Below, one piece after another: positions 2,419-12,915 of a stretch of 64,000 bases of DNA. Under the pieces are notes generated by a model. The model had not been told where the DNA came from and made no database searches. It saw only the letters and a list, made by a program, of their open reading frames with translations. Source of the stretch: Staphylococcus phage vB_SurM-PSU4; the sequence record OL436245.1; one strand, given 5' to 3'. Position numbers and translations under genes: made by a program. Each line of letters starts with the position of its first letter. Position 1 is the first letter of the stretch.

Positions 2419-4857
2419 TTGACTAAAAGCTATCACGTAAGACGACCAAGATTCAGAGTAGAGGCTATTAACGATACTAATGCTGTATCTTTTGAATATG
2501 AAGCAAGAGCTTCAGCTACTGATAAAGAAAAAACAAGTCGTGCTATACAATTTCAAACAAAAAACTCAATGTCTGATGATAGTGCAGTATTCCAAATTAT
2601 CCTCTACGGAGATGTTCAATGGGATAGAGTGCTACAAGCAAATGATATTATTAAAATATACGTAATAGAAGATGAAACAATTATAGATGGAAAAGAGCAC
2701 TTAATACTAAACGGAATGGTAAGTCAAGTATCTACAGTTGGAGAACACTCTAATGATAAAGCAGTATACAGAGTAACAGGACAATCATTCTCTAAACCAT
2801 TTTTAAACTTTGGTTTAGGTATTATACAAGAAGTAAGTGCAGTTCTTTCTTCTAGTGTAGGATGGTTACCAGATGATAAAGAACATGGTATTGAATTTAC
2901 TGGTAAAACAGCAAAAGAAGTTATGAACTCAGCTTTAGATAGATTTTTAGAATATATGAAATATGATTACTCAGGTGAGAATGGTAATGTAGATAAAACA
3001 CTTAAGAGTAACTTTACTAGAAACTTAGCTAGTTGGGAAGAATATGAAAACTTACAAGACCATTCAAACTTAATTAATTTTGACGGTAATTTCAAACAGA
3101 TGTTAGATTTAATTACTTGTAAACCATTTAATGAATTATTCTTTAGAAATGGAGAAGAAGGCAAGTCAGAATTAGTATTAAGGAGAACTCCATTTGACCC
3201 AAGTGATTGGAGAAGTTTAGAAATTGTTCATGAAGACACTGGAAGATTAATTAATGAAGACTTAGGTAAATCTGATGTTGAATCATACGCAGTATTTAAC
3301 GTTGTAACACCACAACAAACTAAAGAATTATCTTCTACAGTATCTTCTAAACCACAAACTCATAGAGCTTTAAGAAATAGGTATGGATATAAGAAACTAG
3401 AAGCAGAATACATGTTCTTACCTATGACTGATTCAGATAGTAACTCTGAAGAAGGAGATAGTCAAGAAAATGACGATAAAGGTAATGTTGAAATAACATA
3501 CGACCAAATATTTAACGAACTTGAAGACTTAGGACAAAAACGTGTTTCTAGAGATAAAGATGGAATTGTCAAGAGAATGTCTTCTAAATATAGAGGATTA
3601 GATAAACCTAAAGCTAAGAAACTTGTAGAGAAATATATTAAAACAAACAGTTTACCTCCTGAATACTTCCAAGAAGTAACAGGAATAGACCCTAATAGAA
3701 AAGTAACTGAAGATGCAATTAGTAAATTCCCTTCAGCAAAAGACGTACAAAGTTTTGTAGAAGGTAAATATCCTCAAAGTAAATTCAAAGAAACTTTTAA
3801 AGAAGATAGTGATTATAAGAAATTAACTAAAGCAATTAAAGAAAAATACCCTATGATTAAAGAAACACATATAGCACAATTAACAGCAGATTTTAAGAAG
3901 AAAAAAGGTGCTTTAACTTCAGATGACTATAAGAAGTTTACAGATAGAGCTAAACAAAGAGTTCAAAATGCTCAAGAAACAGGAGCAGCTGCAGGAGATA
4001 ATGCTTTTTCTATATTCTCTAAAAAACTATTTAATTGGTATCATGCAAACCAAAACTTCTCTAACGGTACACTAACAGTATTAGGTAGTGGAGATTATGA
4101 CTTAGGTAAAAGATTAATCATGCACAATAGACAGAATAATGAACGTTGGGAATATTATATAGAATCTGTTGAACATAACTTTGATATGCAACAAGGGTAC
4201 ACAACAACTCTAGGAGTAACAAGAGGTTTAAGAATGGAACCTAATGATAAAAATGAATCAGGTTCATCTAATAGATTTGCTTTCTTATGGGGTCAAAGTG
4301 TAGATTTCCTAGGAGGGTACTTAGGAGAGAAAACTTTAACACAACTTAAAGAAGAAGGTGTAGCTTCTAAGAAGAAGAAATCAGGTGACGGAGACGGTGG
4401 AAGTGAACATGGAGGAGGAACACTAGCAGGACTTAAAAAATATAAAGGTAAACTACCAACACCTAAAAACAAATCAAATACCTCATGGACAGCACCAGGA
4501 AACCCTAATAGAGGACAGTGGGCTAGAGAATGTACTTGGTATTGTTATAATAGACGACATGAATTGGGGTTAAGCACACCATTTAATGGAGATGCTGCTG
4601 AATGGATAGGAACAGCTAAATCAGCAGGAGTTAAAACAGGAAACACACCTAAACAAGGTGCAGTTGCTGTTTGGCAAAGAGGGGTAAAAGGTGGTTCAGC
4701 TCGATATGGTCACGTAGCTTTTGTTGAATCAGTATCAAGCGATGGTAAATCATTTCATTTGTCTGAATATAACTATGACACACCAAAAGGTTATGGAGAG
4801 AGAACAATACAAATGAGTTCACCCGAAGGGAAAAATGCTAAGTTTATTTACGATTAA
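2419..4857 (+). CDS. Tail-associated murein hydrolase (TAME-like), 812 aa, C-terminal CHAP domain
   Basis: TTG start with AAGGAG 10 nt upstream. The C-terminal 130 aa have a CHAP-like Cys...His arrangement (QWARECTWYCYNRRHELG ... GHVAFVESV). Size and position match the CHAP tail lysins that follow the tape measure in Twort-like phages. Confidence 0.8.
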   Translation: MTKSYHVRRPRFRVEAINDTNAVSFEYEARASATDKEKTSRAIQFQTKNSMSDDSAVFQIILYGDVQWDRVLQANDIIKIYVIEDETIIDGKEHLILNGMVSQVSTVGEHSNDKAVYRVTGQSFSKPFLNFGLGIIQEVSAVLSSSVGWLPDDKEHGIEFTGKTAKEVMNSALDRFLEYMKYDYSGENGNVDKTLKSNFTRNLASWEEYENLQDHSNLINFDGNFKQMLDLITCKPFNELFFRNGEEGKSELVLRRTPFDPSDWRSLEIVHEDTGRLINEDLGKSDVESYAVFNVVTPQQTKELSSTVSSKPQTHRALRNRYGYKKLEAEYMFLPMTDSDSNSEEGDSQENDDKGNVEITYDQIFNELEDLGQKRVSRDKDGIVKRMSSKYRGLDKPKAKKLVEKYIKTNSLPPEYFQEVTGIDPNRKVTEDAISKFPSAKDVQSFVEGKYPQSKFKETFKEDSDYKKLTKAIKEKYPMIKETHIAQLTADFKKKKGALTSDDYKKFTDRAKQRVQNAQETGAAAGDNAFSIFSKKLFNWYHANQNFSNGTLTVLGSGDYDLGKRLIMHNRQNNERWEYYIESVEHNFDMQQGYTTTLGVTRGLRMEPNDKNESGSSNRFAFLWGQSVDFLGGYLGEKTLTQLKEEGVASKKKKSGDGDGGSEHGGGTLAGLKKYKGKLPTPKNKSNTSWTAPGNPNRGQWARECTWYCYNRRHELGLSTPFNGDAAEWIGTAKSAGVKTGNTPKQGAVAVWQRGVKGGSARYGHVAFVESVSSDGKSFHLSEYNYDTPKGYGERTIQMSSPEGKNAKFIYD

Positions 4858-4869
4858 GGAGGTTAGATT

Positions 4870-5772
4870 TTGGATACAGATATTAATAAAATAGTAGAGA
4901 TGTATATTAAAAATATATATGAATATGAAAAAGATTTTGATGAAGACACAATATTTGATAAACAAAAAGAGTTAGAACAAATAGCAGAAACAGATACAGT
5001 AGATTCAGCTTCACATTTAAGACCTTACTCTAATGTAGTTCAACAAATGATAATAACAAACACTAACTATGATATAAAAGAAATACAAACAGGATTATAT
5101 GAAGTGAATATTAAGGTAAGAACCTTAACACATACTTATGATGGTAAGAAGGCTGAATCAGAGCATACTGAACAAATAAAAGTAGAAAGAACACTTAAAT
5201 CAAGTTACTTTATAAGTTCCTTATCTTCAGACATACAACAAATATATGCTACCTATATGGATTACGAAGACCCACAACCTGAACTTAGAAAGTCAGAACA
5301 AGCATATTATGAATATATGATAGGTAATGTTAATTTAGATAATATATATTACATGTATAAAGGTTACCCATTCCAAAATCCATTAGTGAATGATGATAAA
5401 CAACTCCCTTGTGATTCATATAACTTTATCTATTGGCTATATTATAATGTAGACGTAGAATTAGAATATCCATTAAGAAGTGTTGATGTCTTGACAGGAG
5501 AGAATTTTAATACTATACTAGAAAAAGGTCATAAATACAAAGATGATATTTCAAAAATTAATGAAGGAGATTTAATATTCTTTGGTATTAATGATGATAA
5601 TGTAGGTATTTATATGGGAGATGGAGAAGTAGCGACTATTATAGGTTACTTCCCTATAGACGAATCTGGAAGAGTGAGAACTTATAAGTTAGAAGAACTT
5701 TGGGAAGCTTTTAACGGAAGAGTCATGAGATATAAAGACCCTATATTTGATTTTTATGTGGAGGGTAAATAG
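4870..5772 (+). CDS. Putative tail-associated NlpC/P60-like peptidase (degenerate), 300 aa
   Basis: TTG start 7 nt after AAGGAGG. C-terminal GDLIFFG...VGIYMGDGEVA resembles the NlpC/P60 core, but the usual His before GIY is missing. It occupies the position of a 'second tail lysin'. Confidence 0.5.
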   Translation: MDTDINKIVEMYIKNIYEYEKDFDEDTIFDKQKELEQIAETDTVDSASHLRPYSNVVQQMIITNTNYDIKEIQTGLYEVNIKVRTLTHTYDGKKAESEHTEQIKVERTLKSSYFISSLSSDIQQIYATYMDYEDPQPELRKSEQAYYEYMIGNVNLDNIYYMYKGYPFQNPLVNDDKQLPCDSYNFIYWLYYNVDVELEYPLRSVDVLTGENFNTILEKGHKYKDDISKINEGDLIFFGINDDNVGIYMGDGEVATIIGYFPIDESGRVRTYKLEELWEAFNGRVMRYKDPIFDFYVEGK

Positions 5773-8700
5773 ATGGCAATGCAAATGCAATCTTCTTTAG
5801 GTAGTAACTTAAAGAAAACAGATTCAGATGATTTTAAGATTAATAATTTAACTTATGGTACAATAACGAAAGTCAATTATCAATACAGTACTGTAGAAGT
5901 AAGAACAAGTAGAACGTATGCAGGAAGAGTAAATGGTACAGATGGACAATACTCTATACCATTTCCAAGAGGATTTACAGGTAGAACACCAGAAGGAAGA
6001 CCTTTTGGTTCTACACCATTAATTATTCCAGGTATGCTAGTTTTATTAGGATTTATAGAAGGTGAAAGTGGAAACCCTATTGTCTTATCTATTTATTCTA
6101 ATCCAGAGGATAGTAAGATGCTAACACCTAATCCATTAGAGAGTGGAGATATTAGAAACGATGATATTTATACTTACGGTAGTATGATGTTTTCTATCTT
6201 CCCTTCTTTAAATTACTCATTCCAAAATGGTAATGGTACAATTGTTAGAAGTTTAAATGGTAACTCTTTCCTATCAATAACATCTGAAGATGATGAGAAA
6301 CCAATGGCAACTGATTTTGGTATAGGTACAGAATATGAAGACTTAATGTCTTCTAAATATGGTAATGGTGAAATCATTGAATCTAGAAACCAAAGAGCAC
6401 CTGATATGTTATTTAAACATCAAGGAGATTTAAATACAAATAACCATATTACAATGTTACAGCTAACAGAACAAGGTACGCTTAGGTTCTCTGTACTTAA
6501 TACTGAAACGAATAGTAGAACTTCTTGGGAGATTGACGACCAAGGAAACCAACGTACATTATCCCAGAAAGATGATTTAATACTTGATAACGGACAAGAT
6601 TATGTAGAATACGGTATAGATAAAGAACATAACGATTTCTATATAAAAAACGGTAATCATGATTTAAGATTTACTGACCAAGGATTACTTTTAGATGGTA
6701 AACCTATGATAGATGATATAGATAATCAGATAGATGAACAGTTATCTAAATTAAAAGCAATCCAAGAATCTTTAGAAGGTGTGAATAACCTTTTAGATGG
6801 TGCAGGTAAACAAAACCTATTAGAAGTTATAGATGCTTCTGAAAGGTCTGAACAACGTTCTAAAAGTGCTTTAGAACAAGTTACAGGACTTAATACTCAA
6901 GTTCAACAAGTATCTTCAAGAGTAGAGGGTAATATTACTAACTTAAATAATTTTATGAGTAACATTAATAAATACGTAAAAACAAATGATGAGATTATTC
7001 TAGAGTTAGTAACATTTAAAGATGATTTGAATGTAGATAGTATTCCAGAGATTAAACAAACAGAAGAGAAATATAGACAAACAACATTTAGAGATATAAA
7101 GATACATGCAGATTTACCTTTTAAATTTAAAGATTATGATAGTATTATAACATCTGAAAATTTATCTTATTTATTCCCACAAGGATTAGCAATTCATAAC
7201 GGTTATACGTATATTATACACTCAGCACCAGAATCAGGGAGTAAAAGACTGATTGTTGTATACGATGAATTCTTTAAATATGTAAACATGTTCTTCGCAG
7301 GAACTACAGGTGGAGAAGGATTACATGTAGAAACAGAAGGTAATAAAACATATCTTTATGCTAGAACAGATAGTTTTAATATTGGTAAGTTTGATGTTAC
7401 AAGCCTAAGAAATATACAAGAGAAATCTACTTTAACACCAATTAAAGAGTTTAATTTAAATGCTTACATGAACTTCTTTAGAACTAAAGATGGTTGGGGA
7501 GTAGAATATTATAATCAAACCAAAGGAGTATATTTACAAAGAGATACAATTGTATTCTTCAATAAAGACTTTAGTAAACGAACAGGTTACTTATGGATAA
7601 ATCCTTCTAACTCAACTTTATGGTCTGATGATTTATTAACTGGGGTTACGAATAATTCAGCTAAGAAACAAGGTATGACTTTAGTTAATAACACAATAGT
7701 ACAAACATTAGGAGGTAACTACAATCCTTCTAGAGATACAGAAATACACACATACCATTTACAAGGTGTACAAGAGATAAGCCCTAGTGGGGATATTATG
7801 AATGATTACACTTATCACCCACAAGAACTGAAAGATTATTTAAGTGCACAAGGGAAAACAGCAGATATTATTGAACATGAAGGTGCTTTCTCGTACAACA
7901 ATAGACTATTCAGTATTATTGTATATAAAGGTAGAACAAATGCTAATGCTAATAAACAAGGTGTATTACTTGTAGAATATAAACCTAAAGAAAAAGACTA
8001 TACGTTTAATGCAATAGGTGAACCATTCTTAGCACCTACAGCTAATTATAATCCTTATAAGACAAATATTGATAACAAATTAGTGAATGAATATACAGGA
8101 GAATTCATAAATACAATAGAAGAGCTTATCATTTATATGAAAGATACATTCCAAGATAATATTGTTTTTTACTCAAGTAAAATAACAATTAAAGATTTTG
8201 GTGGAGGTTCTATACCAACAGGTTGTAGAGTAGAGGTAGAGAATATGAATAATTTAACTTATTATGTTAAAATAAAAGGATTAAATTATGATTACTTCTA
8301 TCAAGTAAGTTATAAGAGAAGTACAGGTGAATTAACTAAATATACTCCTAAATATGAATATGCTACGAAAGATGACATTAAAGATTTAAGTAGCCCGATA
8401 TCTGATACAGAAAAACCAAAAGATTACACAGCGATATTCACAAGGAATAGTAGTATTACTGATAGAGGAGTAACATTTAATAATAATGAACCTATTTATA
8501 AAGATGGAGGTATAGAAGTATTTAAGTCTTTAAGTGAGACTTTACAAGTTCCTAATAGTGTGTTAAACTTAAATGAAGGAACATTAAGTATTCAAATAGA
8601 ACCTACAACTTTATCTAATAATACAATTATTGATGGTGGAGGTATTTTAGTACAAACGGTTAATAGTGGTCAAGTTAAGGCTACAGTAGGTGGGGTAACA

Positions 8701-8943
8701 ATACAAAGTTCTAAAAAAATTAAAGAAAATACATTTAATAAAGTAACAGTTAAATGGTCTACAAATACTAAAGTGTTATGTATTATGATAGATAATGAAG
8801 TAGATAATGTAACTAATTATATATCCTATACAGGAACTATTTCAGATACAATTAAATTATCAACAACGGTAGACTCAGTTATTAAAGATTTATATTTTGT
8901 AGATAAACCATTACCTACGTATAAAATAAAGGAGGGTCTATAG
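5773..8943 (+). CDS. Large tail/baseplate structural protein, 1056 aa, with central coiled coil
   Basis: ATG with GGAGGG RBS. Long ORF in the tail module with a heptad-like region around aa 310-390. No HRG/GDPD motif was found, so it is not called a glycerophosphodiesterase. Confidence 0.6.
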   Translation: MAMQMQSSLGSNLKKTDSDDFKINNLTYGTITKVNYQYSTVEVRTSRTYAGRVNGTDGQYSIPFPRGFTGRTPEGRPFGSTPLIIPGMLVLLGFIEGESGNPIVLSIYSNPEDSKMLTPNPLESGDIRNDDIYTYGSMMFSIFPSLNYSFQNGNGTIVRSLNGNSFLSITSEDDEKPMATDFGIGTEYEDLMSSKYGNGEIIESRNQRAPDMLFKHQGDLNTNNHITMLQLTEQGTLRFSVLNTETNSRTSWEIDDQGNQRTLSQKDDLILDNGQDYVEYGIDKEHNDFYIKNGNHDLRFTDQGLLLDGKPMIDDIDNQIDEQLSKLKAIQESLEGVNNLLDGAGKQNLLEVIDASERSEQRSKSALEQVTGLNTQVQQVSSRVEGNITNLNNFMSNINKYVKTNDEIILELVTFKDDLNVDSIPEIKQTEEKYRQTTFRDIKIHADLPFKFKDYDSIITSENLSYLFPQGLAIHNGYTYIIHSAPESGSKRLIVVYDEFFKYVNMFFAGTTGGEGLHVETEGNKTYLYARTDSFNIGKFDVTSLRNIQEKSTLTPIKEFNLNAYMNFFRTKDGWGVEYYNQTKGVYLQRDTIVFFNKDFSKRTGYLWINPSNSTLWSDDLLTGVTNNSAKKQGMTLVNNTIVQTLGGNYNPSRDTEIHTYHLQGVQEISPSGDIMNDYTYHPQELKDYLSAQGKTADIIEHEGAFSYNNRLFSIIVYKGRTNANANKQGVLLVEYKPKEKDYTFNAIGEPFLAPTANYNPYKTNIDNKLVNEYTGEFINTIEELIIYMKDTFQDNIVFYSSKITIKDFGGGSIPTGCRVEVENMNNLTYYVKIKGLNYDYFYQVSYKRSTGELTKYTPKYEYATKDDIKDLSSPISDTEKPKDYTAIFTRNSSITDRGVTFNNNEPIYKDGGIEVFKSLSETLQVPNSVLNLNEGTLSIQIEPTTLSNNTIIDGGGILVQTVNSGQVKATVGGVTIQSSKKIKENTFNKVTVKWSTNTKVLCIMIDNEVDNVTNYISYTGTISDTIKLSTTVDSVIKDLYFVDKPLPTYKIKEGL

Positions 8944-9639
8944 TTGGCAGACTTATATAATTCTATGACTGACCTTATGAGCAAAACAACAGAAGGAACA
9001 GATTGGGATATAGAAACAATTGATGCACCTAGTGATATTATATCTATGGCTGTACATGGTGGCGGTATTGAGATAGGTAGTACTGAATTAGCGAGAGTGA
9101 TAGCCGAAAAAGGTGGATATAATTATTTCTCTTTCGTAGCTAAATTATCTAGTAACAATACACAACTACATGTAACGAGTACAAGGTACGATGCACCTAG
9201 AATTATATCTAAGATACAAGATTCAAAGCATTCTATATCTGTACATGGAGCAGCAGGAGATGGAAGTTACACATATATGGGCGGTGGAAATACTGCCCTT
9301 AAAAACCTGATTTGGAAAAATTTAGCAGAAAAAGGTTTTGACTGTAGAGAATCACCAGGTAATCTAGCAGGCGTAGAACCAATGAATATTGCTAATAGAA
9401 CAACTTTAGGTATGGGTGTACAATTAGAACTTTCTACCCAACAACGAAAAGATTTCTTTTTAGATGGAGATTGGTCAAGGTCGAGTAGAGAAAATAAGAA
9501 CAATTGGACTCAGAAGTTATATGATTATGCAGATGCAGTAGTTGAAGCTGTAGAAGAATATCAAAAAAGAGAAATAGTTGAAAAAGAAAACTCAATTTAC
9601 TACCCATTCTTAGAAAGTCTAAAATTTAAGAAATACTGA
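8944..9639 (+). CDS. PghP-like zinc amidase (poly-gamma-glutamate hydrolase family, PF05908-like)
   Basis: TTG start 7 nt after AAGGAGGG. Motifs AVHGGGIEIGSTE (His38/Glu43 spacing as in PghP), LHVTSTRYD and SVHGAAGDG...GGGN match the phage PghP fold signature. Confidence 0.6.
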   Translation: MADLYNSMTDLMSKTTEGTDWDIETIDAPSDIISMAVHGGGIEIGSTELARVIAEKGGYNYFSFVAKLSSNNTQLHVTSTRYDAPRIISKIQDSKHSISVHGAAGDGSYTYMGGGNTALKNLIWKNLAEKGFDCRESPGNLAGVEPMNIANRTTLGMGVQLELSTQQRKDFFLDGDWSRSSRENKNNWTQKLYDYADAVVEAVEEYQKREIVEKENSIYYPFLESLKFKKY

Positions 9640-9718
9640 TTTGGTTTATGGTTGTTTATTAAAGGAAAGAAGAACACATTAAAATACTAGAACAATATTA
9701 TTAAAAAATAATATCTTA

Positions 9719-9750
9719 ATAAGACCTATTTATATAGGTCTTATTTTTTA
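9719..9750 (+). terminator. Rho-independent terminator after the tail-lysin block
   Basis: taagacctat/ataggtctta form a 10-bp perfect stem with a 4-nt loop, followed by TTTTTT. An A-run upstream suggests it could act bidirectionally. Confidence 0.6.
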
Positions 9751-9790
9751 ATAAAAATAACTAGGTCGTGCTATATTAGTTGTGTATAGA

Positions 9791-9819
9791 TTGGAGATAC
9801 ATAAAAAATATGTTATAAT
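9791..9819 (+). promoter_or_regulatory. Sigma-A-like promoter TTGGAG-17-TGtTATAAT
   Basis: An extended -10 at 9811-9819 sits 17 nt after a TTGGAG -35, directly upstream of the baseplate gene block. Confidence 0.45.
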
Positions 9820-9836
9820 ATAGAGAGGTGAAAATT

Positions 9837-10637
9837 GTGCCACAAGCAGATTATACGACAAAAGATAGATATACTTTAAAACGTTTTGTATTAGAATTAA
9901 AACATAAGAGTGATGGTACAACAAAAATCTATAGGTTCAGAGTAAACCCAGAAGACTATAGTAAAGAAATACCACACAGAACTTCAGTACTAAAAACACA
10001 ATCAAGTATTCTTTACGAAGATTACGGACAAGATGTAAAAACAATTCAATTCTCAGGTCAAACAGGATTAAAAAGACGTAGAGATTTTGATGGTAAAATG
10101 AAAAATGGTAAAGATAAATTAGATGAGCTAGAAGATATAATTAATAAATATGGTAATACTGCAGGTAGTGGTAATAAGAGTTCTTATGATATGGTGTTTT
10201 ATAACTTAACAGATGATGAATCTTACAAAGTACATTTATCTCCACAAGGATTTAAGATAGAACGTTCAAGTGAACAATCTCTATTATACAAATACCAAAT
10301 TTCTTTAGTTATCTTAGGAGATGCAGGAGAACCTGAGTTTGATACAATAGATTCTTCTAATATTGGAAATAACAATAAGAGTTCTGGATATACAAGTGAT
10401 AGGTATATACAAGACCAAACAAGAGCAGAAGAAGAACAAAATGCTAGAAATAAACAAGCTATGGATACGATAGATAGAGCTAGAGGAAAAGGTTCAACGT
10501 CACCAGAAGGCGTAGGCTCATTAGGCGTAGATAGTAAAGGAAGAACAATATATAATCCAAGAGTAAATTCAAATGGTTTAGAGGGTTCTTTAAGCAATAT
10601 GTCCTTAGCTATTGGTTATGGATTAGGAGGATTTTAA
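9837..10637 (+). CDS. Baseplate-associated structural protein
   Basis: The frame is open from a GTG at 9828, but the GTG at 9837 has GAGAGGTG 6 nt upstream. Lies in the baseplate module; no domain recognised. Confidence 0.55.
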   Translation: MPQADYTTKDRYTLKRFVLELKHKSDGTTKIYRFRVNPEDYSKEIPHRTSVLKTQSSILYEDYGQDVKTIQFSGQTGLKRRRDFDGKMKNGKDKLDELEDIINKYGNTAGSGNKSSYDMVFYNLTDDESYKVHLSPQGFKIERSSEQSLLYKYQISLVILGDAGEPEFDTIDSSNIGNNNKSSGYTSDRYIQDQTRAEEEQNARNKQAMDTIDRARGKGSTSPEGVGSLGVDSKGRTIYNPRVNSNGLEGSLSNMSLAIGYGLGGF

Positions 10638-11164
10638 TGAATCAAATTATACCACAACCACCTGAATTGGTTAAATTTTTAACAAGTATAGAAGTCAAGA
10701 ATAGCTTCTTAAGTAAAAATATGTTAGATGATGAATTAGATTTTATTTCTTTCTACTATACACCTAATTTACAAATTAGTTTATTAGCAGAGGAAAATTT
10801 AAAATATTTAAAAAATGGTAATGTACAACTTACTTCTCAAGATTTAGGGGAAAATAGTTTTGTGAGAAGAATTATAAAATCAGGATTAAAAAGGCAAAAT
10901 TCTAAAGTTTATCGTTTAATGCAACTGATTGTTTTAGAGGTGTATTCTACAATAAATGCTTTAACTGAAAACCCAGAAAATGTAAAACATTTAACTGAGA
11001 AAGATTTAAATATTTTAAGTGATAATATTAATTATGTATGTGATTATTTAGGTGAAAGCGATGACTATAATAGTATTATACAAGATTTAAGAAATATAAG
11101 TTTAGATATAGATTTTATAAAATTACAATTACCATTAATTAAGAAAGAATATGGTGAGACATGA
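10637..11164 (+). CDS. Hypothetical baseplate-module protein, 175 aa
   Basis: ATG with GGAGG RBS. Overlaps both neighbours by one base (TAATG), suggesting translational coupling. Confidence 0.5.
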   Translation: MNQIIPQPPELVKFLTSIEVKNSFLSKNMLDDELDFISFYYTPNLQISLLAEENLKYLKNGNVQLTSQDLGENSFVRRIIKSGLKRQNSKVYRLMQLIVLEVYSTINALTENPENVKHLTEKDLNILSDNINYVCDYLGESDDYNSIIQDLRNISLDIDFIKLQLPLIKKEYGET

Positions 11165-11859
11165 GATTAAGAAAACATTATATACAATATGGAGAGACGT
11201 TACAAAGCATTTCGCAATCTTATTTTGACACACCAGAACATTGGTTAGATTTAATTGAACATAATAATTTAAAATATCCGTATATTGTAGATACTGATGA
11301 AGAAAAACAAAAGAGACCTGAAGAGTTAGTTACTTATGGTGATTACATAATCATACCTATACAAGATGACTTAAAAAACCTTCAGGCACAAGAAATTAAT
11401 AAAAGAGATAGAGATAAAATTGTTGAATTATCTTTGGGAAGAGACTTAAATATTACGAATGATGATATGAAAATAAGTGGTACAAGTGATGAAATACTTT
11501 CTCTTAAAGATAATGGACATAGAGATTTAGATACAGTAAGAGGTATAGAGAATTTAAAACAACAATTACAAACCAGAATGTTAACTAGGAGAGGTTCTTT
11601 ACTACTACATCCTAACTACGGTTCTGATTTACACAAATTATTTGAATTGAATACACCTGAACAAGGAATAAAGATACAAAATGAAATTAACAGAACATTA
11701 CTAGAAGATTCAAGAGTTACTGAAGTGAATTTGAATAATTGGATTATTGATGGTAACTTATTTAGAGGAGAATTTTCTGTTAATATTATATCGGTAGACC
11801 AATCTTTAAATTTCATTCTTGGAGCAGACTATAGTGGTGTATTCGCTATTTTTGAGTAG
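11161..11859 (+). CDS. Baseplate wedge protein (gp25/GpW-like) with N-terminal LysM-like segment
   Basis: N-terminus YIQYGETLQSISQSY...LIEHNNL is LysM-like. The C-terminal QLQTRMLTRRGSLLLHPNYGSDLHKLF matches the GpW/gp25 core. Confidence 0.65.
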   Translation: MRLRKHYIQYGETLQSISQSYFDTPEHWLDLIEHNNLKYPYIVDTDEEKQKRPEELVTYGDYIIIPIQDDLKNLQAQEINKRDRDKIVELSLGRDLNITNDDMKISGTSDEILSLKDNGHRDLDTVRGIENLKQQLQTRMLTRRGSLLLHPNYGSDLHKLFELNTPEQGIKIQNEINRTLLEDSRVTEVNLNNWIIDGNLFRGEFSVNIISVDQSLNFILGADYSGVFAIFE

Positions 11860-11868
11860 GGGGATAAT

Positions 11869-12915
11869 ATGAAGACGAGAAAGCTATCTGAAATACTAAC
11901 ACGTATGATAGATAAAGTAATGATAGGAACTGACCGAGTAACAGATTTTTCACCAGGCTCAGCAATTCGTTCATTACTAGAAGCTGTATCTTTAGAGATA
12001 GAGCAATTTTATATTTTAACAAAAGAGAATATTGAGTGGGGTATTGCAGAAGGGACAACGGAAGCTTTTGATTTTGAAAGGAAAAAGAATCGTAAAGCAT
12101 ATGGTGATGTTACCTTAAGAATGTATAACCCTTTAGAACAAAGATATTATATACCGAGAGGAACAATATTTACCTCTAGCAATAATCAATTCAGTCAGCA
12201 ATACGAAACTCTTGTAGACTATTATATAGAGCAAGGTTCAACTGAAGCTGAAATTGAAGTGTATTGTTTAGAAGCAGGAACTTATGGAAATATACCTGAA
12301 CATACTATTGATAGTATGTCAAGTGCAAGCTCAGTGATTAAAGAAGTAGATAATGAAACATCATTTAATACAGGACAAGATTTAGAAAGTTTAGAAGATT
12401 TAAAAGAGAGATTCCATTTATTTATTGAATCTAGAGGAAGAGCTACTAACAAAGCTATTCAATATGGAGTATTGAGTGTTCCAGATGTTGAGGGCGTATA
12501 TGTATATGAACAAGTAGGAAGAGTTTTAGTTTACGCCCATGACCGTAATGGTAACCTATCCAATATCATGGTTAAAGAAATATATGAAAATATAGAAGAC
12601 TATAGACCAAGTGGTATTAAATTAGATGTTCAACCTGTAGACAAAATAAGTGTAGATGTGAATGTTGATGTAGAAATCACAAACAAACAAAGAATTAATG
12701 ATACACTTAAAGAACATATCGAGAATGTTATTAGAAACTATTTAAACGATTTTACAGTAAATAAAGATTTAATACTTGCAGACTTAACACAAGTTATTAT
12801 GAATATAGACGATTCACTTATTTATGACTTGACATATAATATAAATCATGAGAATATTATAACAGAACCTCACGAAATTATTCGTTCAGGTGAAATAAAT
12901 GTAAATCTTAAATAG
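11869..12915 (+). CDS. Baseplate J-like protein (gp6/GpJ family)
   Basis: N-terminal DFSPGSAIRSLLEAVSLEIEQFY is typical of the baseplate_J family. Immediately follows the gp25-like gene. Confidence 0.7.
   Translation: MKTRKLSEILTRMIDKVMIGTDRVTDFSPGSAIRSLLEAVSLEIEQFYILTKENIEWGIAEGTTEAFDFERKKNRKAYGDVTLRMYNPLEQRYYIPRGTIFTSSNNQFSQQYETLVDYYIEQGSTEAEIEVYCLEAGTYGNIPEHTIDSMSSASSVIKEVDNETSFNTGQDLESLEDLKERFHLFIESRGRATNKAIQYGVLSVPDVEGVYVYEQVGRVLVYAHDRNGNLSNIMVKEIYENIEDYRPSGIKLDVQPVDKISVDVNVDVEITNKQRINDTLKEHIENVIRNYLNDFTVNKDLILADLTQVIMNIDDSLIYDLTYNINHENIITEPHEIIRSGEINVNLK

Follow-up and report, generated by a model that had tools for sequence, protein, structure and literature searches.

Zinc-dependent hydrolases of poly-gamma-glutamate (PGA) have been described from phages and prophages, and the gene at positions 8944-9639 of Staphylococcus phage vB_SurM-PSU4 (sequence record OL436245.1; the 64,000-nucleotide stretch analysed is called the window throughout) is related to them. 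The described enzymes closest to its product are PghP of Bacillus phage phiNIT1 (PDB 3A9L), PghP of phage PM1 (21DC) and PghL/YndL of a Bacillus subtilis prophage (5ONJ, a complex with a PGA hexapeptide), the last being a prophage 'moron' expressed by the bacterium and not a gene of a phage structural module. Replacement of PghP H40, E45, H78, H103 or E165 by alanine destroys activity; in PghL the hexapeptide is held by the side chains of N73, S74, H77, T79, S80, N151, T168 and R171, and the substitution R171S abolishes cleavage (PMC6506827).

The other system of reference is the baseplate core of phage 812, whose genes follow the order gp110 hub, gp111 weld, gp112 central spike, gp113 tube initiator, gp114 assembly protein and gp115 sheath initiator. 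The hub carries a CHAP 'cleaver', the weld is an inactive CHAP-like 'clip', and the central spike consists of plug, coiled coil, knob and a glycerophosphoryl diester phosphodiesterase (GDPD) 'petal'. The distal spike domains hang below the baseplate, where their proposed task is the breakdown of teichoic acid ahead of spike release (PMC13433997).

The window has the same core order, and in it the PghP gene is an extra gene inserted between those for the central spike and the tail-tube initiator. The region shares 93% identity with Staphylococcus phage RSM-J51Sa, and a part of it shares 87-94% with Golestan101-M, phiSA_BS1/2 and JDF86; the records of RSM-J51Sa and Golestan101-M are classed as Herelleviridae, Twortvirinae, Baoshanvirus. 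The window is accordingly that of a staphylococcal myophage of Baoshanvirus type. The best reading of the locus, which we hold with the scales about level, is that PghP is a capsule depolymerase docked on the spike. The searchable literature yielded no account of PghP at the spike of staphylococcal myophages, and the link appears to be undescribed.

A PghP-family gene abutting the spike gene

The features at the junction of the two genes are as follows.

8944-9639, plus strand: gene for a PghP-family zinc gamma-PGA hydrolase, 231 amino acids, TTG start, TGA stop
8929-8935, plus strand: Shine-Dalgarno sequence AAGGAGG, 8 nucleotides 5' of the PghP TTG
8941-8943, plus strand: TAG stop codon of the spike gene, abutting the PghP start codon and in the same frame

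The protein matches PF05908 from end to end (184.5 bits, with the cut-off at 22; E 2e-54; 1-190 of the 191 profile positions), as well as PHROG 4175 'poly-gamma-glutamate hydrolase' (E 5e-45) and phiNIT1 PghP (E 1.3e-37, with 37% identity across the whole catalytic domain). Its sequence also matches the PM1 enzyme and, at only 29% identity, PghL/YndL; no NCBIfam model matches it. An AlphaFold2 model built from 35 homologues has a mean predicted local distance difference test score (pLDDT) of 92.8, and its top three Foldseek matches in the PDB are 3A9L, 21DC and 5ONJ, with target-normalised template-modelling (TM) scores of 0.93-0.95 and root-mean-square deviations of 1.4-1.6 Å; the best superposition is with 3A9L (TM 0.95, 1.4 Å), PghL scores 0.93, and the next match after these reaches only 0.46. 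The predicted fold is an open alpha/beta fold related to carboxypeptidase A. Thus, an initial annotation made from the sequence alone, which had called the gene a PghP-like gamma-PGA hydrolase on the strength of the motifs HGGGIE, HVTS, SVHG and GGGN (residues 38, 76, 99 and 113, all present), is borne out by both profile and fold. It was also correct in placing the gene within the tail and baseplate module, with tail-lysin genes upstream and baseplate genes downstream; more precisely, the gene lies directly after that for the central spike.

The active site is intact. In HMMER alignments the set H38, E43, H76, H101 and E162 aligns with the five PghP residues at which alanine destroys activity. 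H38, E43 and H101 provide the His-Glu-His zinc ligands, while H76 and E162 are the equivalents of catalytic His78 and Glu165, the latter corresponding to Glu270 of carboxypeptidase A; all five are invariant in the 35-sequence alignment. The side chains that contact PGA in PghL have as counterparts N72, T73, H76, T78, S79, N148, T165 and R168 (same alignments), identical at seven of the eight positions, the remaining one being the conservative change S74 to T73. Most of the catalytic and contact residues are invariant among the 35 homologues. The ratio of non-synonymous to synonymous substitution rates (dN/dS, Nei-Gojobori) is 0.13-0.18 against four relatives, as expected under purifying selection. 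On this evidence from sequence the window protein is probably a functional PGA hydrolase, and PGA is very probably its substrate.

The Shine-Dalgarno sequence falls within the final codons of the spike gene, and a comparable one precedes the PghP start in 6 of 6 relatives examined. The TTG start is credible because the N-terminus that it gives, (M)ADLY, is common to the whole family, the phiNIT1 and PM1 enzymes (MADxY) included. The abutment of stop and start suggests translational coupling; the spike stop is likewise followed directly by the PghP start in RSM-J51Sa, L006, L012 and Alsa_4, and with one codon between in L009, while in BE24 and 184DA the junction is out of frame or overlapping. 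(L006, L009, L012, L013 and L014 are metagenomic contigs.) At its other end the protein closes with about 24 low-confidence, linker-like residues (208-231, ending in IYYPFLESLKFKKY), an extension (IYYPFLESLK...) by which it differs from the phiNIT1 and PM1 enzymes and which in relatives continues into spike domains. An open reading frame on the opposite strand (9267-9503, 78 amino acids) was rejected; it falls fully within the well-supported PghP frame and has no support of its own.

Linkage of PghP to the distal spike in related phages

Family assignment in this slot is not new, since relatives have been annotated and surveyed before: Sepunavirus copies (e.g. BE24_0090, SEP1) are already named 'poly-gamma-glutamate hydrolase' in RefSeq/GenBank, and a 2015 survey found PghP-like genes in three Staphylococcus phages (PMC4497714). 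A tblastn search with the window protein retrieved 225 phage records, 149 of Bacillus and 74 of Staphylococcus phages. Staphylococcus records with a homologue at E 1e-40 or better number 73, and most have it in this slot. The carriers are for the most part large Twort-like myophages from S. xylosus, S. carnosus, S. epidermidis, S. capitis and S. equorum, with S. succinus, S. saprophyticus and Mammaliicoccus as further isolation hosts. Cap loci direct the synthesis of PGA in S. epidermidis, S. capitis, S. caprae and S. xylosus, and the first two and the last of these are among the hosts of carrier relatives.

The spike and its terminal domain in the window are:

5773-8943, plus strand: central spike, 1056 amino acids, residues 1-403 homologous to the 812 spike
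8383-8940, plus strand: domain X, spike residues 871-1056, about 185 amino acids

Three architectures occupy the slot. In the first, (a), PghP is a separate gene after the spike gene, as in the window, RSM-J51Sa, L006, L009, L012, L013, L014 and Sepunavirus. The Sepunavirus arrangement (SEP1, BE24, phiIPLA-C1C, Twillingate) has the same order, that is, a spike with X, PghP and tube initiator, in another genus; the stand-alone PghP of about 222 amino acids is 45-47% identical to that of the window, and the junction differs in having a 20-nucleotide gap and no common frame. In the second, (b), PghP forms the N-terminal domain of a protein of about 627 amino acids whose residues 222-627 correspond to the knob and petal of phage 812 (E 6e-251 to PDB 9EUL), including a real PF03009 GDPD domain. 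This was so in all three cases checked (184DA, Alsa_4 and PG-2021_18), and about 30 further records are of this type by similarity, with a PghP 72-75% or 51% identical and the same neighbours. In the third, (c), a single frame of 1132 amino acids (Golestan-100, S2G3, Fi4S2) places PghP after the spike through a GGGS linker, the junction reading ...KPKGGGS-DKYKSMTELM...HGGGIEIG...; the first ~810 residues are homologous to the window spike (33% identity, E 7e-136), and here PghP is necessarily part of a baseplate protein. Across the fusions of both kinds PghP is 44-75% identical to that of the window and lies in the same slot, but is covalently part of a spike or spike-derived chain, whereas the window protein stands alone and covalent union with a structural domain is seen only in relatives.

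The heads of other spike homologues differ as well: P0059 (996 amino acids) has fused to it the domain that elsewhere is the 156-aa protein described below, P0077 (921 amino acids) a beta-helix (PF13229), and P0084 (Remus) a GDPD domain (PF03009). In Twort-like staphylococcal phages generally, modules seem to be exchanged with particular frequency at the tip of the spike. Another, unrelated fusion architecture is that of a set of bacterial or prophage PghP homologues (P0008 and P0010-P0017, 352-353 amino acids, from Priestia megaterium and relatives), which carry a beta-rich C-terminal extension of about 150 amino acids with no Pfam assignment.

Domain X accompanies PghP wherever the latter is a separate chain or is joined to knob and petal. 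Every locus of architectures (a) and (b) has a spike whose extreme C-terminus is a homologue of X, and all 34 phage records retrieved by tblastn with X carry PghP as a separate gene. In every listed record for which PghP coordinates are also listed, X ends about 10 nucleotides before PghP; X at the spike end with PghP directly 3' is found also in BE24 (Sepunavirus), L006, L009, L012, L013 and L014, and the spike of P0081 carries a C-terminal X too. Conversely, X is absent from the PghP-less spikes of Golestan101, L015, L016 and L017 and from the covalent spike-PghP fusion. This co-occurrence is strict, yet X has diverged to 22-40% identity across lineages. The domain is rare, with 15 matches at E 1e-3 among 1.84 billion representative proteins, C-terminal in all those of spike length; a word-index search with X alone gave no match. 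Its model (pLDDT 81) is a jelly roll of the ConA/LamG type that resembles the lectin-like HCN subdomain of clostridial neurotoxins, the carbohydrate-binding domain of an arabinanase, and pentraxins (TM ~0.55). The idea of X as a polyanion binder was dropped as uninformative, the isoelectric point ranging from 4.95 to 8.9 between lineages with no consistent positive charge. Presence with a separate PghP and absence where PghP is covalently part of the spike or is missing is the pattern expected of a docking partner, and we propose that X is a docking or partner module for PghP.

A second line of evidence comes from the way in which the X and PghP sequences entered the spike gene. PghP-less spikes of the Baoshanvirus type end in YEYATKDDIK, followed by 7-10 residues and IVVSKEEPEEAMIWFEVTD; in Golestan101, L018 and L019 this tail is always followed by an S8 subtilase gene and a gene for a 156-aa protein. 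In RSM-J51Sa and L020 the spike instead runs past DIK into X and stops, and PghP follows. The RSM-J51Sa PghP has 260 amino acids, and its C-terminus is the ancestral spike tail, directly before the S8 gene, as is also the case in L020; the transferred tail, IVxSKEEPxEAxIWFEVTD, is elsewhere the C-terminus of the spike itself. Because the tail now on PghP is otherwise that of the spike, the cassette of X, stop codon and PghP was inserted within the spike reading frame. PghP thus lies, evolutionarily, in the middle of the spike polypeptide, and the tail could keep any role it has at the tip only if the PghP chain remained joined to the spike.

The ~20-residue peptide IVVSKEEPxEAxIWFEVTD ends whichever protein precedes the S8 gene (five loci with it, at least four without; the loci compared were L002 5688-7253, L001 6783-8348, L018, L019 and L020), and is absent wherever the S8 gene is absent. 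Its role may be to dock the S8 or 156-aa modules, or it may be no more than a part of the recombination cassette.

The window itself has lost this part of the locus. Compared with RSM-J51Sa it is without ~1.6 kb that comprise the S8 subtilase gene (364 amino acids), the gene for the 156-aa protein and the last ~30 codons of PghP (window 9628-9717 against L001 6685-8348). The deletion, which took the middle of the tail, is marked by a remnant:

9636-9662, plus strand: out-of-frame LIWFMVVY and stop, a remnant of the tail ...AMIWFEVTD and stop

A sequence ending in EHIKILEQYY in the window resembles the end of the 156-aa protein (...ELIRIIAY), and is possibly a further remnant. The minimal layout, in which a PghP of 230-232 amino acids is followed by the tube initiator, has also arisen independently in L012 and L009, and is on that account viable.

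Baseplate neighbourhood and candidate transcription signals

The other features of the region are listed below.

74-2371: open reading frame of 765 amino acids with a Phage_lysozyme2 domain at residues 548-682 (E 3e-31)
2419-4857, plus strand: baseplate hub with a C-terminal CHAP 'cleaver' at residues 696-785 (E 3e-20)
4870-5772, plus strand: weld protein, homologue of the 812 weld (gp111; PDB name NlpC/P60 domain-containing protein / ORF57; E 2e-42)
9718-9751, plus strand: intrinsic-terminator-like hairpin with T-run, 12-bp stem and 4-nucleotide loop, kept in RSM-J51Sa
9792-9819, plus strand: promoter-like site by consensus match only, TGGAGA, 16-nucleotide spacer, TG-extended TATAAT
9828-10637, plus strand: tail-tube initiator (PF23980, E 9e-87)
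10637-11164: assembly protein, assigned by position
11161-11859: sheath initiator, assigned by Pfam
11869-12915: wedge (Baseplate_J)

The order hub (CHAP), weld, spike, PghP, tube initiator, assembly protein, sheath initiator and wedge reproduces the 812 core from gp110 to gp115 apart from the inserted gene; the hub is equated with gp110 by its CHAP domain and by synteny. The spike (gp112 in 812; PDB molecule names 'GP-PDE domain-containing protein', ORF58) matches residues 1-406 of 9EUF_B over its residues 1-403 (E 1.9e-115), which cover plug and coiled coil, and there its PDB homology ends. Residues ~404-870 are common to Golestan-100 and Golestan101 and were assigned to no family. Unlike the 812 spike, that of the window has no knob and petal, PF03009 being absent even at E up to 1, and has instead a different middle region and the lectin-like X. 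It nevertheless matches PHROG families named 'glycerophosphoryl diester phosphodiesterase', and an automatic GDPD annotation of the gene at 5773-8943 would be wrong; such labels on spike genes of this kind are often wrong.

The initial annotation had counted three peptidoglycan hydrolase domains in the neighbourhood. The Phage_lysozyme2 and CHAP domains are probably active, but the third is the weld, which matches NlpC/P60 at E 1e-4, under the Pfam cut-off, with Asn in place of the catalytic His (NVGIY). The 812 weld, described as inactive (PMC13433997), also has Asn for the catalytic His; the window weld keeps an NlpC/P60-like Cys (LPCDSYN) where that of 812 has Ile, and from its sequence is probably inactive too, though less degenerate. 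Among the PHROG families that the frame at 74-2371 also matches are ones named for tape measure proteins and for tail-associated lysins. The frame begins near the window edge and its counterpart in relatives is much longer (1447 amino acids in L012); an upstream part may be cut off or lie in a separate gene. The true start of the tube initiator is probably the in-frame GTG at 9837, behind GAGAGGTG, rather than the mechanical start, GTG 9828. Scans of the entire window for Rfam families and tRNA genes gave no match.

Genes between 74 and 9639 are tightly packed, with gaps of 0-47 nucleotides, and PghP is followed by a 188-nucleotide spacer that holds first the hairpin (9718-9745: dG -14.2 kcal/mol, z -4.0) and then the promoter-like site. 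Because of these two signals, the co-transcription with its neighbours that had been suggested for PghP is plausible only toward the upstream hub, weld and spike genes, and PghP is not obviously co-transcribed with the baseplate genes downstream. PghP looks like the last cistron of a hub-weld-spike unit, and its late expression together with that unit can be regarded as highly probable. Of the sites in the first 17 kb, the one that best fits a sigma-70 promoter is at 5491-5519 (TTGACA, 17-nucleotide spacer, TATACT; 11 of 12 positions), inside the weld gene ~250 nucleotides 5' of the spike start, which could be an internal promoter for spike and PghP, or a chance match; promoter-like sites are no commoner here than in shuffled sequence.

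Proposed site of action of PghP and its consequences

In the process that we propose, a zinc-dependent endo-hydrolase of PGA would be made late with the baseplate-core proteins, from the last cistron of the hub-weld-central-spike string and in translational coupling to the spike. PghP would then travel with the particle as an accessory subunit, attached by the lectin-like X to the far end of the central spike trimer. As the tail nears the wall, the docked enzyme would cut the PGA that coats coagulase-negative staphylococci as capsule or slime, and its clearance would open the way to receptor binding and to attack on the peptidoglycan by the hub CHAP domain. The concept resembles that of the 812 spike, in which an enzyme that degrades an envelope polymer sits at the distal end and acts before the hub CHAP; the 812 enzyme, however, is a covalently attached phosphodiesterase, while the PGA hydrolase of the window is of the peptidase type and forms a chain of its own. 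The proposed role is also that of the virion-borne capsule depolymerases (tailspike and tail-fibre enzymes) of Klebsiella, E. coli K1 and other phages, particle-borne enzymes that tunnel through capsule to the receptor. In those phages the spike itself is made of large trimeric beta-helix glycanases or lyases, whereas PghP is a small globular zinc peptidase directed at a polypeptide capsule, and its attachment to the particle is a proposal.

The link to the spike is suggested, at the level of sequence, by the covalent fusions, the fusions to knob and petal, the co-occurrence with X and the transferred spike tail. A wider and more tentative view, somewhat less likely than not, is that the distal spike of Twort-like staphylococcal phages is a chain of exchangeable modules (GDPD petal, PghP, S8 peptidase, beta-helix and lectin-like domains), either fused or docked non-covalently, in which X would be the socket for PghP and PghP could carry further modules in turn (knob and petal in 184DA-like phages, the ancestral tail before the S8 gene in RSM-J51Sa).

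Several observations weigh on the other side, and for physical docking of PghP on the spike the case stands evenly divided. In the window PghP is made as a chain apart from the spike, from a Shine-Dalgarno sequence and start of its own, no docking motif was identified in it, and the tail kept in its closest relative, RSM-J51Sa, has been lost. The pattern of X and PghP could also arise from inheritance as one cassette. No single-chain X-PghP fusion occurs among the 1.84 billion representative proteins, so that direct evidence of the Rosetta-stone kind is missing for the pair. PghP of phiNIT1 was purified from the supernatant of infected cultures, and hence is soluble; its gene, which adjoins a 'tail spike protein' gene and a transposase, lies outside the baseplate module, whereas the window gene is the cistron right after the central spike. 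In the staphylococcal siphophage StB12 the PghP gene adjoins holin and endolysin genes. Late expression would be expected equally of an enzyme released at lysis. Finally, no virion mass spectrometry or proteome of any carrier phage was found in the searchable literature; the virion proteome of JS1, a Kayvirus without PghP, was set aside as irrelevant.

These points lead to the strongest rival, a distinct possibility that we consider rather doubtful, in which PghP is a soluble late enzyme like that of phiNIT1, is not built into particles, and is freed at lysis to strip PGA from neighbouring cells or biofilm for adsorption of the progeny. X would then be an independent lectin-like spike head that shares a recombination cassette with PghP. 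The separate frame and its ribosome-binding site, the supernatant origin of the archetype, the failure to find X covalently joined to PghP and the position beside lysis genes in StB12 all agree with this account, as do the lack of a signal peptide or recognisable anchoring motif in the PghP sequence and the commonness of tail-less forms of ~231 amino acids. Against it stand the covalent spike-PghP fusions of one lineage and the ~33 phages that join PghP to knob and petal, two domains that phage 812 carries on its virion; a free PghP-knob-petal chain would mean that a teichoic-acid phosphodiesterase had been moved off the virion. The transfer of the ancestral spike tail onto PghP in RSM-J51Sa and the strict company of X and PghP across lineages, despite the divergence of X, are likewise difficult to accommodate. 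For the initial annotation, which had preferred a virion-associated activity, the result is mixed: fusions, X and the transferred tail in relatives make association more plausible, but the protein is a separate polypeptide here and its archetype is soluble.

Three further explanations fare worse. It is improbable that the enzyme is a fourth wall hydrolase that cuts a different gamma-glutamyl bond, for instance that between D-isoglutamine and L-lysine of the peptidoglycan stem. PghP does sit among wall-degrading tail proteins, and some carrier records name S. aureus as host, but every residue by which PghL holds the PGA hexapeptide in the complex is kept, the Arg essential for PGA cleavage among them, the protein is 37% identical along its full length to proven PGA hydrolases, and carriers are concentrated on coagulase-negative hosts with cap loci. 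More improbable still is read-through of the TAG codon or recent gene fission, by which some ribosomes would produce a spike-PghP fusion of 1288 amino acids, with the enzyme anchored covalently. The in-frame, single-stop junctions described above and the true fusions of Golestan-100 and S2G3 invite this idea; direct adjacency of stop and start forces the frame, however, so that an in-frame junction tells little. Two loci have TAG as the stop and three have TAA (L012 outside the count) with no conserved read-through context, the BE24 and 184DA junctions are out of frame or overlapping, and every locus has a strong Shine-Dalgarno sequence and the conserved native N-terminus MADxY. That PghP is a decaying, non-functional remnant of a larger cassette (PghP with tail, S8 peptidase and 156-aa protein) is scarcely credible, for although the ~1.6 kb and the last ~30 PghP codons have gone and left an out-of-frame remnant, the frame is intact, the catalytic residues are complete, dN/dS is ~0.14, and the same minimal architecture arises independently in L012 and L009.

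If PghP is indeed borne on the spike, it would be, to our knowledge, the first known particle-borne depolymerase for a polypeptide (poly-gamma-glutamate) capsule. For S. epidermidis and its relatives on skin and in food, the polymer is a protection against salt, antimicrobial peptides and phagocytes, and in Bacillus it keeps phages from reaching the cell; the staphylococci that make it are the most wanted targets of phage therapy in device infections. Even as a soluble enzyme, PghP is a candidate anti-capsule or anti-biofilm reagent acting on staphylococcal DL-PGA. As a particle-borne one it would make the X-PghP cassette a portable module for engineering phages against encapsulated strains. 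PghP would then be a host-range module for coagulase-negative staphylococci, and would help to set which strains these broad-host-range myophages reach.

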